In this document: piece by piece, positions 11,168-16,859 of the stretch
How the letters are laid out: every line of letters starts with the position of its first letter
Position numbering within the stretch: position 1 is the first letter of the stretch
Origin: a virus
DNA length: 64,000 bases
Reading direction: 5' to 3' (one strand)
UHGV virus genome: UHGV-0139776
The notes under the pieces: generated by a model
What the model was told of the DNA's origin: nothing
The model's input: the letters and a program-made list of their open reading frames with translations, nothing else
Databases searched by the model: none
Translations under genes and position numbers: made by a program

Positions 11168-11413
11168 TTGGCAGAACGTGTTGATGATGCAGAGCTGAGC
11201 ATGAATCAGTTAGAAGCTCTCAAAGACATGGCCATCGATAACATCAGAAAGCAGGCACAGGTCGTGAGCCAGGTATTTACAGGGAAGTGTCGTTACTGCA
11301 ATGAATCGATTGAATCAGGCATTTATTGTGACGCTGAATGTGCGCAATGGCACAGGGAAGAGCAGGCTGCAAAACAGCGTAAATATGGCATGCGACCGGC
11401 AGGATTTGACTGA
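11168..11413 (+). CDS. small C4 zinc-ribbon protein
   Basis: CRYC...CDAEC cysteine pairs; track start is TTG, in-frame ATG at 11201. Confidence 0.5.
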   Translation: MAERVDDAELSMNQLEALKDMAIDNIRKQAQVVSQVFTGKCRYCNESIESGIYCDAECAQWHREEQAAKQRKYGMRPAGFD

Positions 11414-11415
11414 TT

Positions 11416-11994
11416 ATGTTGCGCTTTACTGAGGAAGAGTTTCAGGCTTTTAGTGAGCGTCGAAATAAGGGGCGGTCCAGGCCAAAAACCAAAAAGGATC
11501 CATTCTTATCGCTTGCGCCGGTAAAAGAAGTTTCTCCACATGCGAAGGCACTTGCAGCACTGGCAAAGAACCCCGACCTGCGCGACGGAAATTGCGAGCA
11601 CTTCGAGCAGGTTTTCATTTTTGATTACTTCGAACGCAAGCACCCTGACATCTATGAGCTGTTGCATGCAACGCCTAACGGAGGGAAACGTTCAAAAGCA
11701 ACCGCCGGGAAAATGAAGGCTGAAGGGCAGAAAAAAGGTTATCCGGACATGAGTCTCGATAAAGCATGCGGTATTTATCACGGCATGCGAATTGAGCTTA
11801 AAGAACCAAATGGTAAAGCCCCGACGAAAGAGCAGATCGCCTGGATGCGCAGGCTTAGAGAGGAAGGTTACTACGTCGTTCTTGCGTATGGTGCAGAACA
11901 AGCGATAACCGCCATCCTGGAATACATGAACCTTAAAAAGGGTGAGGCTATTGAGCATGTATTGAACGGTGATAAGTGGTTGTACGCTACGTGA
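11416..11994 (+). CDS. VRR-NUC family nuclease
   Basis: GYPDM...IELKEPNGK...QIAWM...GYYVVLAYG matches the PD-(D/E)xK VRR-NUC signature. Confidence 0.6.
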   Translation: MLRFTEEEFQAFSERRNKGRSRPKTKKDPFLSLAPVKEVSPHAKALAALAKNPDLRDGNCEHFEQVFIFDYFERKHPDIYELLHATPNGGKRSKATAGKMKAEGQKKGYPDMSLDKACGIYHGMRIELKEPNGKAPTKEQIAWMRRLREEGYYVVLAYGAEQAITAILEYMNLKKGEAIEHVLNGDKWLYAT

Positions 11995-12190
11995 AATAAT
12001 AAATTAATTAGTGCATGTGTGCTCTTTGATATAGCGCACATTAACATCGGGAGAATAATCGTGTCATCCAAGGCTAATTATGAATCGCTGGCATCGATCA
12101 TGCCGCGTAATGAACAGGAAACAGATGCTGTAGTGGACCCTGTAATCGCTGAAATGAATGCTCGCCTGGAGGCTGAATTTGCAGCTGAGA

Positions 12191-12820
12191 ATGAACATAC
12201 CACGCAGGGCGACTAGGACTGTTTTTTGTGTCGGTAGCGGTCCGTCACTCACTCGTGAGGACTGTGCTGCTATAGAAAAAACTGGCTGTTCAATCATCGC
12301 GGTTAACAATTCCTGGCAGATGTTCGATGACATTTATGCCTTATACGCCGGTGATTTGTCATGGTGGAAGCAATACGGATCCACCATACCGGGAGGGAGA
12401 TTCCGCAAAGTGACAGCCAACCTGGCGGCGGCGAAATCATTTTCGTTGGAGTACAGGCGATATTGTGGACCGGCGGAAGGGGTAAATAGCGGCGCGCAGG
12501 CTATCAGTCTGGCTGCTGAATCAGGGGCTGAAGTAGTGGTATTAGTCGGCTATGACTGTTCTCTGCAAAACGGCCTTCATTGGCATGGCGCGCACCCTCA
12601 AGCCCTACGGAATCCAACGCAGGTTTCTATTTCAAAATGGCAACAGCAGTTCCTGGATACCCGCAAAAAACACGCAGATTTACATATTTTGAATGCAAGT
12701 AGGAGCAGTGCAATTCAATGTTTCCCAAGAATAAATTTAGAGGCAGTGATCGCGTTATTATCGTCGGCAGTGGCCCAAGCGCCGCAAACTTTGTTGCGCC
12801 GCGCGGAGTGCCGATTATAG
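12191..12820 (+). CDS. GxGPS-motif protein (DUF115/MptE-like fold), paralogue 1
   Basis: VFCVGSGPSL...IIAVNN motif; ATG at 12191 (track start 12158). Confidence 0.45.
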   Translation: MNIPRRATRTVFCVGSGPSLTREDCAAIEKTGCSIIAVNNSWQMFDDIYALYAGDLSWWKQYGSTIPGGRFRKVTANLAAAKSFSLEYRRYCGPAEGVNSGAQAISLAAESGAEVVVLVGYDCSLQNGLHWHGAHPQALRNPTQVSISKWQQQFLDTRKKHADLHILNASRSSAIQCFPRINLEAVIALLSSAVAQAPQTLLRRAECRL

Positions 12821-13344
12821 CGGTCAATGGGGCCATCGACTGGCTGAACCGCGCTTCTTATTTTTTCACACTTGATCCATCGCCAGACAATATGCGGCGC
12901 GTTGGTCGTGGCCGCCGTCGCCGTGGTGTTTGTTATTGCATGGCACTACGCGATGTTAAAGAACGTGAAGTCAGAGACGGCGTTCTGTGCTTCCGTCGTG
13001 TGGCTGAACGTGGCATGGAGCCAAAAAATACGAATTCTCCCGAGTGGTGGGCGTGGCGCTGGTCCGCACATTTCGGACTTTGCGAAGATGAGAATGAAAT
13101 TGCCAGCGGCAATAGTGCATATGGCGCTCTGAACCTGGCTTTCCATATCGGATTCAAACATGTCGCCCTGGTGGGCGTTGACGCTACACAAGAACCACGC
13201 GTTCACTCCGGCGGCACGCCAAAAAATCTAAGTCACCTGCCTTTGTTATTCCAGTCTGCGCGTGAACGGATTGACGTTGTTTCATGCGGGAAAATGGGAG
13301 GTATTCCGCAGATGACTCTTAAAGAATGGCTGAAGAATACATGA
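12718..13344 (+). CDS. GxGPS-motif protein, paralogue 2
   Basis: [10 protein letters not shown]...IIAVNG; overlaps paralogue 1 by about 100 nt. Confidence 0.45.
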
Positions 13345-14783: not shown

Positions 14784-14797
14784 CCATAAGGTGCACT

Positions 14798-15016
14798 ATG
14801 TGGCCATTCCGACGGAAATATCACTACTGGCTGATCGCCTTTGTTACGCCGACCGGCGGTATCAGGCATGTCATCACCAGGTATCGCAACAAGAGACTCA
14901 CCTTAGCCAGAATTTTACAGGCTGCCATAGGTGAGGGACTGGATACAAATTGCGTAGTCCTTCCACCTTCATACTTAGGAAAAATGACCGAAGCACAAGC
15001 TAATACGGAACTTTGA
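14798..15016 (+). CDS. hypothetical small protein
   Basis: 72-aa ORF, weak support. Confidence 0.25.
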   Translation: MWPFRRKYHYWLIAFVTPTGGIRHVITRYRNKRLTLARILQAAIGEGLDTNCVVLPPSYLGKMTEAQANTEL

Positions 15017-15017
15017 A

Positions 15018-16280
15018 ATGAGCACTTCAGCACAAAACCAATCAATCGAAAATGTATCTATCCCTGACGTCCTGAATGCCGGTATCCCGGCCATTATCCA
15101 GAACATCCGGGCCGCGCAACGCCGCGTTAGTTGTGATGACCTCACAGCACGTTTTTTTGATAATGCGGTTCAGTCAGCGGAGATGCTTCACGCACAGCTT
15201 ATTGATGTTTATAACGCAGAAGCTGATAGCCATAACTCCCTGGTAGATGCAGCTGAAAATATGCAGTTGGATCTCGGTCTGAAGGGTAAAGAAATTGAAG
15301 AGCTTCAGCTGCAAATTGAACATTTGAAACGCCAGCAACAGGACGCGATCGACGATGCGACGCATGACGCCAACCAGCGTGCTGATAATGCCGAACGTAT
15401 AAGCATTGAGCTGGAAACAAAACTCAATGAAATGACCGCGATGGTTGAACTGCGGAACTCACAGATTTCAACTCTAAAATCTCAATATAAAGAGATCATG
15501 AAACTTGATCCTTTTAACCTTGAGAAACGCTATAACAAAGCTAAAAGCGAGCGACAGGAACTGCGTAAGCAGGTCGCCGACCTTAACCAACAGCTCAAAA
15601 AAACTATTAAAGATGCAAGCGAAGCGCGCGTGGCATTTGCTAATAAAAAAGCAGAGGTTACCGCGCTGGTTAATGAGAATGCCAAATTTGCGACGCTCAA
15701 GAAGGAAATGTATGGCATTACTGAGCGCCGTTTCCCTGCAAGCAAACTTCATCCGACGTTAGGGCAAATCTCCTTCTTCCCGCGCCTCCTGGCTTATGGG
15801 ATCTCATCGCCTAAAGAGTTCAATAACGAGCGTCCTTATATCGTTTCTAAGCTGGACTTTGCTTATCAGTTCTGCTGCGACATGGGCTATGCCATTGATA
15901 TCCGGATCAACGAATGGTTGATGCCAAACTTCCAGCCGTTGGCCATTTTCCGCGAGTTCCAGCCGGAAGGTTGGGTAGAGTTCTTCCATGAATTGATCTG
16001 TAAAGAGATGGAAAGCCGCCGCCCGGAACTGGTCCGTCGAGTTGAGTGGGCGCAAGAGGTTATGTTGGCAGAGGCAGAGCTGCCGTTCGAACCGGAATTT
16101 ATTGATGATCTGGCAGCTAAAGGGCTGCATACCCTGTTTGATGTGGTTACCCGCCGTCATGAGCAGTTGGTTGTCGAATTGGGTTTAGAGGAAACAGCGG
16201 CAAGAAGACTTCTCGATGTTTGCTATGCACGTAGCGATGCATGGGAAAAAGAGAACGGCGGCACTATTTACGTTCGCTGA
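15018..16280 (+). CDS. coiled-coil protein
   Basis: 420-aa ORF; long heptad-rich region 100-220 and a globular C-terminal domain. Confidence 0.55.
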   Translation: MSTSAQNQSIENVSIPDVLNAGIPAIIQNIRAAQRRVSCDDLTARFFDNAVQSAEMLHAQLIDVYNAEADSHNSLVDAAENMQLDLGLKGKEIEELQLQIEHLKRQQQDAIDDATHDANQRADNAERISIELETKLNEMTAMVELRNSQISTLKSQYKEIMKLDPFNLEKRYNKAKSERQELRKQVADLNQQLKKTIKDASEARVAFANKKAEVTALVNENAKFATLKKEMYGITERRFPASKLHPTLGQISFFPRLLAYGISSPKEFNNERPYIVSKLDFAYQFCCDMGYAIDIRINEWLMPNFQPLAIFREFQPEGWVEFFHELICKEMESRRPELVRRVEWAQEVMLAEAELPFEPEFIDDLAAKGLHTLFDVVTRRHEQLVVELGLEETAARRLLDVCYARSDAWEKENGGTIYVR

Positions 16281-16352
16281 CAGTTACAGTGTCACTTTTA
16301 ATGCTGGTGGAGTGCGCCCACCAGCATTTTTTTCGTCCAATGAGGAGGGCAT

Positions 16353-16859
16353 TTGAGTATTTTCAATAAACACGCACACCAGGAACGTCCGTATATCGTC
16401 ATAGTTGATATTGATGGAACAATATCAGAGGCAACTGAAGACAGACTGCATTTGCTTCCGCCACCAGGTAAAGGTGCATTAACAAAGGACTGGAACGAGT
16501 TTAATCTCGCCTGTGACACTGATACTCCCATAACTCCAGTTATTGATATTGTGCGCCAGTTATTTAACGTTTACACGGTCTGGTTTGTAACCGGGCGCTG
16601 TGAGATCGCAAGGGATAAAACACGAGCCTGGCTGCGGAAGTACGTAACAAACGGGGCTGAGCCTTTGCTATCTATGCGTCCTGCCACCGATGACAGAAAT
16701 GACGGCCCAGCAAAGATTGATCTCCTTAAGAAAATTGGTCTAAGTAAAATCGCGTTCGCGCTGGAAGATAAGATTGAAGTGGCGCGTGTTTTCAGGAGTC
16801 ACGGCGTACTTACGTTAATGGTCAGGGAGTATGAAAACGCGCTTCTCCATCAACAATAA
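16353..16859 (+). CDS. pap: HAD-superfamily phosphatase-like protein
   Basis: VDIDGTIS (DxDGT) catalytic motif. Confidence 0.65.
   Translation: MSIFNKHAHQERPYIVIVDIDGTISEATEDRLHLLPPPGKGALTKDWNEFNLACDTDTPITPVIDIVRQLFNVYTVWFVTGRCEIARDKTRAWLRKYVTNGAEPLLSMRPATDDRNDGPAKIDLLKKIGLSKIAFALEDKIEVARVFRSHGVLTLMVREYENALLHQQ

Follow-up and report, generated by a model that had tools for sequence, protein, structure and literature searches.

The 64,000-nucleotide stretch of the virus genome UHGV-0139776 analysed here (the window) contains, at positions 11168-16859, the genes pmgL, pmgM, pmgN, pmgO, pmgP, ppp, pmgQ, pmgR, pmgS and pap of a P1-like phage. Three of these genes, pmgO, pmgP and pmgQ (the trio), may encode a late, cytoplasmic and soluble glycosylation module that acts on virion proteins. 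We put this reading forward tentatively because we infer its sugar donors, its acceptor and its biological benefit; the glycosyltransferase chemistry of PmgO and PmgP is likewise a prediction. The evidence consists of the folds and catalytic-type motifs of the three proteins, the paralogy of PmgO and PmgP, their strict co-occurrence with PmgQ, their position among head-neck genes and the accessory genes found with them. The recurrence of the trio in the head-neck blocks of many unrelated phages of Gram-negative bacteria suggests that such phages may glycosylate their own virions.

Along the whole 5.7-kb interval, the sequence identity to P1, P7, RCS47, SJ46 and vB_EcoM-673R5 is 98-99%, and the open reading frames (ORFs) are therefore those annotated as pmgL to pap in these phages. 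All ORFs listed in a first-pass annotation, which a model made from the DNA letters, are present where it had placed them. For twenty years, pmgO, pmgP and pmgQ of P1 have been listed under a "putative morphogenetic function" and have shown no phenotype, and a literature search found no functional study of the trio. RefSeq already labels pmgO as a "sialyltransferase" and pmgQ as a "glycosyltransferase."

PmgQ has the fold and motifs of a GT8 glycosyltransferase

Single-sequence searches of the PDB with PmgO, PmgP and PmgQ gave nothing significant, and family profiles were required. An alignment of the PmgQ family (28 sequences) has invariant residues D79-L80-D81, K63, GDQ148-150 and H208-G209-x-P211-x-P213, and the profile derived from it matched solved structures of the GT8 enzymes AgtA, GlyE and glycogenin (6mw5, AgtA, E 2.5e-6; 5gvv, E 0.004). 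When an AF2 model of PmgQ (mean confidence, pLDDT, 94.6) was compared with the PDB by Foldseek, annotated GT8 enzymes made up the majority of the top 50 matches, the best of which was again 6mw5 (1.2e-8). Further matches were to GlyE, glycogenin, LgtC, WbbM, XXYLT1 and LARGE1. The protein-directed GT8 enzymes glycogenin, GlyE and AgtA are among the structures that PmgQ resembles in fold.

WaaJ, WaaO and LgtC, which build the core of lipopolysaccharide (LPS), also belong to GT8, and LgtC is among the fold matches of PmgQ. These enzymes bring in an alternative in which the trio remodels the inner or outer core of LPS by adding 3-deoxy-D-manno-octulosonate (Kdo) and a hexose to nascent lipid A-core on the inner-membrane surface that faces the cytoplasm. 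Late masking of the LPS receptor would then lead to superinfection exclusion or keep progeny from adsorbing to debris, and the receptor of P1 is the LPS core. All taxon-named hosts of the trio are diderm, and diderms make Kdo activated with cytidine monophosphate (CMP-Kdo). The DxD and H..G..KPW motifs of PmgQ align with "YLDADVV" and "tGatKPW" of WaaJ, though weakly (hhalign probability 35%). The N-terminus of PmgP faintly matches the Kdo-III transferase WaaZ (E 0.094) over one aligned motif; this similarity is not significant (hhalign probability 13-16%, single motif). Core structures differ greatly between hosts, which also argues against LPS as the substrate, and the C1 operators repress the genes in the P1 lysogen, and late expression would leave little time for export of altered LPS. 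We consider core remodelling unlikely, and it is weighed further below against the genomic position of the trio.

PmgO and PmgP are paralogues with a Maf/MptE/sialyltransferase fold

An hhalign comparison (probability 97.6%, E 3e-12) confirmed that PmgO and PmgP, whose genes overlap by 103 nt, are paralogues, as the first-pass annotation had proposed from their GxGPS motifs. The corresponding loops read "CVGSGPSL" in PmgO and "IVGSGPSA" in PmgP. Among 33 PmgO-like sequences, GPS, N39, D55, NSG, GYDCS and HWH are invariant, and the N-terminal GxGPS loop and (N/T)SG...GxD are invariant in an alignment of 45 PmgP-like sequences. The two families have in common GxGPS, VN(N/G), (G/L)D, NSG, G(Y/V)D and a His, and their motifs align to GNGPSL and TSG...SGIDF of CstII. 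Invariant acidic residues, identified from the alignments only, are D55 and D122 in PmgO and D53 and D155 in PmgP; the catalytic residues of Maf are E324 and D415. The AF2 model of PmgP had a pLDDT of 94.7, and both proteins were found to have the fold shared by Maf, MptE-like proteins and GT42 enzymes. The start of pmgO is probably at 12191 or later, 3' of the first position of its ORF.

The fold alone cannot separate glycosyltransferase from pyrophosphokinase chemistry. PmgO and PmgP could instead be pyrophosphokinases similar to MptE or thiamine pyrophosphokinase (TPK) that make a pyrophosphorylated small molecule or activate the substrate of PmgQ. Their sole Pfam family match is to MptE-like proteins, and the GxGPS loop is common to both branches of the fold. 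On the other hand, their motifs parallel the sialyl-motifs of CstII, their constant partner is a GT8 enzyme, the accessory glycosyltransferases and methyltransferases described below are typical of glycan clusters, and no pterin or thiamine context was seen in any locus. The genomic context favours glycosyltransferase chemistry, and we regard a pyrophosphokinase activity as improbable.

A fold search of BFVD with the PmgP model showed that the MptE/DUF115 fold is widespread in uncultured tailed phages and in giant viruses, including ChoanoV1 and Pyramimonas orientalis virus. Some of the matching tailed-phage proteins are 400-700 amino acids long, and one is annotated with a methyltransferase domain.

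The three genes travel together

Homologous loci were gathered from genomes, viral contigs and metagenomes, and PmgO, PmgP and PmgQ were mapped by profile hidden Markov models. A first scan of viral contigs returned P1-like contigs only; diverse loci were obtained with a reordered alignment and with genome and metagenome collections. The resulting sample held 48 non-redundant non-P1 loci, 27 of which had at least 3 kb on either side of PmgP. Within these fully flanked loci, PmgQ was a neighbour of PmgP in every case (27/27) and PmgO in nearly all (23/27). The loci come from alpha-, beta- and gammaproteobacteria and from Longimicrobiales, with named hosts that include Pseudomonas, Zhongshania, Microbulbifer, Methylophilaceae, Brevundimonas, Commensalibacter, an Ochrobactrum-type phage and Longimicrobiales.

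The other genes of the interval behave differently. The genes pmgL, pmgM and ppp are found beside the trio in P1-like elements only, and pap was not detected beside it in any other locus, including the P1-like element of Pantoea (L095 in our locus numbering). Three distant P1-like elements (L104, L189 and L237) have the order O-P-Q followed by a PmgR-like gene (cluster c22), and in L104 and L189 a PmgS-like gene (c56) also lies 3' of the trio. The ppp gene is missing between P and Q in these three elements and in all non-P1 loci, and we rejected it as a conserved member of a pathway. From these results, we conclude that the trio is the only conserved association among the ten genes. With ppp, pmgL and pmgM confined to P1-like elements and pap not detected beside the trio elsewhere, the interval is better described as a mosaic than as a single pathway; pmgL, pmgM, ppp, pmgR, pmgS and pap are separate functions that are chance neighbours in P1.

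The trio lies among head and neck genes

In at least 14 lineages, the trio is inside the block that encodes the capsid, adaptor Ad1, head closure Hc1, Neck1 and major tail proteins, as identified from Pfam and PHROG (for example L205, L238, L239, L249, L262 and L182), and in several lineages it is interleaved with the head-neck genes. The gene order is TerL, portal, protease, HK97-type capsid, O, Ad1, Hc1, P, Q, Neck1 and major tail in L205, and capsid, adaptor, P, Q, head-closure protein and tail in L182. In phage D3, the PmgO-like gene orf7 is 3' of the capsid gene orf6. In P1, the trio has on one side a divergent operon that encodes gp26, gp25, the stopper gp7 and the terminator gp24, and on the other side the head-completion gene pmgR. 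Such interleaving in many phages would be unexpected if the trio were a host-conversion cassette for LPS; in favour of the LPS reading, several phages carry the trio beside the lysis cassette.

The module often contains accessory genes as well. These encode S-adenosylmethionine-dependent methyltransferases (12 loci), a GT2 enzyme and Nucleotid_trans-like proteins with a DxD motif, and they support a role in building a glycan. No flippase or lipid-carrier genes were seen in the flanks examined, in a search that was not systematic.

The names pmg (putative morphogenetic) and hdm (head morphogenesis, in P7) imply a different role, in which the trio proteins are non-enzymatic morphogenetic or structural proteins. 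This idea is in keeping with the late-promoter control of the genes, with the P7 record that annotates hdmA-D as "head morphogenesis" and with GenBank records that label PmgO-like proteins of PAJU2 (ORF010) and Klebsiella phage Eowyn (H69) as "structural protein." We give it very little credence, given the high-confidence enzyme-fold models and the nucleotide-binding and catalytic-type residues that are invariant across distant homologues; in addition, the proteomics paper on P1 virions does not name PmgO, PmgP or PmgQ in its main text. If the "structural protein" labels stem from virion mass spectrometry, the PmgO-like enzyme may be virion-associated in PAJU2 and Eowyn. The PAJU2 gene (L266, 5974-6543) belongs to a variant module, also present in D3, that consists of a PmgO-like protein, a 275-amino acid protein and a methyltransferase.

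Small proteins are encoded between the capsid and PmgO-like genes of several phages (phage D3, L267 5637-5924; L087 9280-9564; L249 421-705; L205 6570-6917). They have a common N-terminal domain, a linker rich in Ser, Pro, Ala and Gln, and a basic C-terminus, which in most of them contains an RGRP (AT-hook-like) motif. These proteins could be glycan acceptors or DNA-binding head proteins. We did not adopt the D3 orf6.5-type proteins as the acceptor, since with RGRP C-termini the low-complexity part may be a mere linker.

Chromosomal copies of the three genes in Pseudescherichia and Serratia are each set among genes for inverse-autotransporter or Big_1 adhesins, with which they are interleaved one by one. 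The islands are at 2241-15359 of L181 (Pseudescherichia) and 2674-10603 of L003 (Serratia plymuthica), and their adhesins comprise an inverse-autotransporter invasin (IAT_beta and seven Big_1 repeats) and other Big_1/RCC1 proteins. In the Serratia island, the trio-like genes also adjoin holin, lysozyme, lipase and lipoxygenase genes. Glycosylation of adhesins is a possible role of the trio in these islands. That the chromosomal copies lie among adhesin genes rather than waa genes is a further point against remodelling of the LPS core.

Regulation and published phenotypes

The genes of the trio are tightly packed for coupled translation: in addition to the overlap between pmgO and pmgP, pmgP overlaps ppp by 19 nt and ppp overlaps pmgQ by 4 nt. 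No membrane segments were predicted in any P1 protein of the region. PADLOC models gave no match to a defence system, the sole exception being coiled-coil cross-hits of PmgS to LmuB.

A CRISPR interference (CRISPRi) screen and a deletion library of P1 have been published (PMC10695390; PMC9024508). In these, pmgL, pmgM, pmgO, pmgP, ppp, pmgQ, pmgS and pap are non-essential, knockouts of the trio have no plaque defect, and pmgR is the only essential gene between pmgL and pap. For pmgN the published data conflict, as CRISPRi scores it as essential (efficiency of plating, 1.4e-2) and its deletion is non-essential (PMC10695390). Deletion of pmgR leaves heads and tails unjoined (PMC9024508).

The first-pass annotation had also considered nucleic-acid modification. 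In the form considered here, the trio would glycosylate phage DNA (or RNA) late in infection together with the VRR-NUC nuclease, the PNKP-like phosphatase and genes similar to 3'-phosphoadenosine 5'-phosphosulfate (PAPS) reductase. The neighbouring genes do encode proteins with nucleic-acid-type folds, and Mom of phage Mu is a precedent for late-expressed DNA modification. These neighbours are, however, not conserved with the trio, a position in a head-neck operon is unlike that of DNA-modification modules, and in the examined flanks no base-hydroxymethylase or similar gene was seen, in a search that was not systematic. To our knowledge, P1 DNA is not hypermodified. Sensitivity of knockouts to restriction had been suggested as a check, and antirestriction is unchanged in the published non-essential P1 single-gene knockouts (PMC9024508). 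These data disfavour the idea to the point that we regard it as highly improbable.

Neighbouring genes and sequence features

The positions of the genes and regulatory elements are collected in Table 1. The remaining genes of the interval are of the kinds that the first-pass annotation had listed: its zinc-ribbon protein is the zinc-finger protein PmgL, its VRR-NUC nuclease is PmgM, its Ser/Thr metallophosphatase is Ppp, its coiled-coil protein is PmgS and its HAD phosphatase is Pap; its DxD-motif transferase-like protein is PmgQ, with the invariant D79-L-D81 and GT8 fold described above.

Table 1. Genes and regulatory elements in and near the interval (positions in the window; HJ, Holliday junction)
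Feature	Position	Strand	Evidence or remark
dbn, possible GT-B (GT4-like) glycosyltransferase	5249..6223	+	Glycos_transf_1, 25.1 bits against a cut-off of 26.4, E 1.5e-5
LPpmgL late promoter, -22 element and -10	11061..11079	+	back to back with LP26; 1 mismatch to annotated P1 sequence
C1 repressor operator O26 (Op82)	11094..11110	-	identical to P1 operator
pmgL, small DksA/TraR-like C4 zinc finger	11168..11413	+	CxxC...CxxxC; PHROG phrog_54 (DksA-like) 1.6e-12
pmgM, VRR-NUC nuclease	11416..11994	+	PDB 4qbl E 7.7e-17; PHROG HJ resolvase 9e-27
C1 operator Oppp (Op83)	12001..12017	-	identical to P1; overlaps predicted pmgN-pmgQ operon promoter
pmgN (hdmA), small ORF	12019..12216	+	overlaps pmgO start; promoter-proximal end of operon
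pmgO (hdmB), Maf/MptE/sialyltransferase-fold enzyme	12158..12820	+	GSGPS motif; PHROG phrog_4603 4.4e-74
pmgP (hdmC), second Maf/MptE/sialyltransferase-fold enzyme	12718..13344	+	paralogue of PmgO
ppp, lambda NinI-type Ser/Thr metallophosphatase	13326..14018	+	translationally coupled into operon; close P1-like phages only
pmgQ (hdmD), GT8-family GT-A glycosyltransferase	14015..14716	+	DxD and C-terminal His; profile, model, Foldseek
C1 operators OpmgRa (14718-14734) and OpmgRb (14767-14783), with promoter PpmgR	14718..14783	OpmgRa +, OpmgRb -	identical to P1
pmgR (shtA), essential head-completion/head-tail joining factor	14798..15016	+	deletion phenotype (PMC9024508); PmgR-like genes beside distant trios
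pmgS (shtB), coiled-coil protein	15018..16280	+	coiled-coil cross-hits; PmgS-like genes 3' of the trio in L104 and L189
Intrinsic terminator 3' of pmgS	16300..16328	+	11-bp stem, 6 GC pairs, T-run
pap, PNKP-type HAD phosphatase	16353..16859	+	DIDGT motif; Pfam HAD_PNKP 9.2e-12; hairpins on either side
C1 operator OpmgT (Op88)	16859..16875	+	identical to P1

PmgM scored slightly below the cut-off of the Pfam VRR_NUC family (21.3 bits against 23.8); VRR-NUC proteins of the prokaryotic and viral type are Holliday-junction resolvases. Ppp, a NinI/PrpA-like phosphatase, matched the Pfam family Metallophos (calcineurin-like metallophosphoesterases) with 59.3 bits against a cut-off of 21.5 and the NinI-like PHROG at 5e-113; its match to NCBIfam PRK11439 (3.3e-81) was under the equivalog cut-off. 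The only matches of PmgS were coiled-coil cross-hits of residues 59-234 to SMC/Rad50.

Pap matched HAD_PNKP with 45.7 bits against a cut-off of 27.6 and the Pnkp1 structure 4xrp with an E of 0.003, and its DxDxT nucleophile motif reads "VDIDGT" in the translation; no NCBIfam family was found for Pap, nor for PmgO, PmgP or PmgQ. To judge from the DNA, pap looks like a separately bounded, moron-like unit because a strong terminator precedes it and a second hairpin, on the opposite strand at 16908-16930, follows just 3' of the gene. A role of Pap as a KdsC-like sugar-phosphate phosphatase was rejected, as the protein is of the PNKP type and the gene is terminator-bounded.

Downstream of OpmgT, between 16900 and 18700, the phage departs from the pmgT region of P1, and no phage record covers at least 80% of this stretch. 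A 134-amino acid ORF (17054-17458) overlaps one for a 257-amino acid PAPS-reductase-like protein (17428-18201), and the stretch 17434-18637 shares 94% identity with the NinC region of lambdoid phages that convert their hosts to Stx2 production. This identity, together with the NinI-like ppp, suggests an exchange with the nin regions of lambdoid phages.

Outside the interval, a GT-B-like gene had been reported as co-transcribed with ban. This gene, dbn, is indeed 3' of ban (3580-4950, DnaB domains), but its match to Glycos_transf_1 is slightly under the cut-off and a sequence search of solved structures in the PDB gave no match to dbn. If the borderline case of dbn is counted, P1 may encode four glycosyltransferase-like proteins.

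Discussion

We propose that the trio would act as a portable, soluble, three-enzyme glycosylation module. In the lytic cycle of P1, its expression would be driven by the promoter at Oppp, which C1 represses, and by transcripts that read through from LPpmgL. PmgQ is predicted to be a retaining GT8 enzyme that depends on Mn2+ and the DxD motif and takes the hexose it transfers from a uridine diphosphate (UDP)-sugar. PmgO and PmgP, as diverged enzymes of the Maf/CstII kind, would both add acidic ulosonic sugars, with CMP-sugars as donors. By elimination, the sole such donor in E. coli K-12 would be CMP-Kdo. The modification probably takes place in the cytoplasm, because the proteins have no membrane segments and flippase or lipid-carrier genes were not seen. 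Its target could be one or more structural proteins of the virion, in the head, the neck or elsewhere on the exposed surface. These would be modified either ahead of assembly or in its course, and the particle would gain a sugar coat that plaque formation in the laboratory does not require. The normal plaques of the P1 knockouts are as expected of such a surface decoration.

Several observations weigh against virion glycosylation by the trio. The strongest are that P1 virions have not been reported to carry a glycan, that the head modules of many capsid-adjacent loci are related to each other (HK97-type), so that these loci are not all independent observations, and that in about seven lineages (for example phiNP) the trio occupies a site typical of morons, with the lysis cassette on one side and the terminase on the other. 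A paper on the structure of P1 by electron cryomicroscopy at 3-4 A contains no word beginning with "glyc-"; the fibres and several flexible termini are unresolved in it. PmgO and PmgP scored 23.7 and 20.9 bits against Pfam PF01973 (MptE-like), under the cut-off of 34.6 (some homologues carry precomputed matches to this family), and PmgQ matched no Pfam family at E<=0.1, Glyco_transf_8 included. The "structural protein" labels of the PAJU2 and Eowyn homologues, and the LPS-core enzymes within GT8, count on the same side.

Based on these results, the earlier view of the interval can be revised. The first-pass annotation had seen one cluster of sugar- and phosphate-transfer enzymes next to a VRR-NUC nuclease; this does not hold for an interval in which pmgL, pmgM and ppp join the trio in P1-like elements only, pap lies behind a strong terminator and pmgR is a head-completion gene. 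Among the functions it had named, glycan modification fits best, for pmgO, pmgP and pmgQ but not for the other genes, and remodelling of the host envelope stays a live rival. Annotation by profiles and structures, which it had suggested, revealed transferase folds rather than ordinary morphogenetic proteins without them. Its statement that function could not be determined from sequence alone was fair for the donor and the acceptor, but comparative genomics narrows the choice much further.

A broader and more doubtful extension of virion glycosylation is that P1 and a wide range of proteobacterial siphoviruses and myoviruses (many prophages as well as relatives of D3, PAJU2 and phiNP) carry on their virions a short acidic glycan of Kdo or another ulosonic acid and a hexose, sometimes methylated, that is built in the cytoplasm by a hitherto unrecognized module of a GT8 enzyme and two Maf-like enzymes, and that enterobacteria have co-opted the same module for Big_1/invasin-type adhesins. 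If true, phages of Gram-negative bacteria would have their first described virion glycosylation system, and CMP-Kdo would have a new use. The genes are known and partly annotated; we found no description of such a possible virion-glycosylation system in Gram-negative phages.

Few phages have been used in genetics as much as P1. Should the trio glycosylate virions, self-glycosylation by phages would extend from mycobacteriophages to phages of Gram-negative bacteria, with other enzymes, and the presence in head-neck operons of genes that are dispensable on plates would be explained. The trio would also be a compact, soluble toolkit for protein glycosylation that already works in E. coli. Relevance to phage therapy would follow, as glycans shield mycobacteriophages from antibodies, according to the summary in PMC12363180. 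If LPS were the target instead, the trio would be a new receptor-masking device of the lytic phase.

Comparison with known systems

PmgQ shares the GT-A fold, the DxD motif, the C-terminal metal-binding His and a GDQ-type motif with GT8 enzymes such as glycogenin, AgtA, GlyE, LgtC and WaaJ/WaaO. Unlike these enzymes, it is minimal in size (233 amino acids), lacks a Pfam Glyco_transf_8 match and is only 11-17% identical to the solved members.

Maf enzymes can O-link Kdo to Ser or Thr with CMP-Kdo from E. coli (bioRxiv 10.1101/2020.06.03.131540). PmgO and PmgP share the N-terminal GxGPS and the (N/T)SG...G-x-D motifs with M. magneticum Maf (PDB 5mu5) and with CstI and CstII (GT42). Action in the cytoplasm on proteins bound for the cell exterior, as in Maf systems, is also what we propose for the trio. 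In contrast to the 632-residue Maf chain in 5mu5, PmgO and PmgP (∼200 amino acids) consist of the catalytic core only, without N- and C-terminal substrate-binding domains. They further differ from Maf and GT42 proteins in that their sequence similarity is under the Pfam cut-off and that they are always paired with a GT8 enzyme, and from Maf systems in that there are no genes for nonulosonic-acid biosynthesis near the trio.

In the AIDA-I/Aah and HMW1/HMW1C systems, autotransporter adhesins are glycosylated in the cytoplasm by soluble transferases encoded beside the genes for their target adhesins. The islands of Pseudescherichia and Serratia, in which IAT_beta/Big_1 genes are interleaved with those of the trio, have a similar layout. 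The AIDA-I/Aah and HMW1/HMW1C enzymes belong to other families than the trio (GT9-like heptosyltransferases and GT41), and the link between the trio and Big_1 proteins, unlike that in the two known systems, is one of gene layout.

Mycobacteriophages provide the precedent for phage-encoded glycosylation of virions (Freeman 2023, as cited in PMC12363180). The Che8 enzymes are a GT2+TylF fusion, a GT2 and a GT25 enzyme, in contrast to the GT8 and two Maf/sialyltransferase-fold enzymes of P1, and hhalign found no homology of Che8 gp109 or gp110 to the PmgQ family (probability <1%). The Che8 genes are at the right end of the genome rather than in the head block, and the hosts are mycobacteria rather than diderm proteobacteria. 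Glycosylation is demonstrated in the mycobacteriophages and predicted for the P1 trio. The enzymes of mycobacteriophages are presumably dispensable for plaque formation as well. Like the P1 module, the systems of mycobacteriophages (Che8 gp108-110, Corndog and Myrna) consist of a few phage-encoded, soluble transferases, of the GT-A type, often with a sugar methyltransferase. Their product, in the account of PMC12363180, is the decoration of capsid and tail proteins, and, as we propose for the trio, the phage gives the transferases and the host gives the nucleotide sugars.

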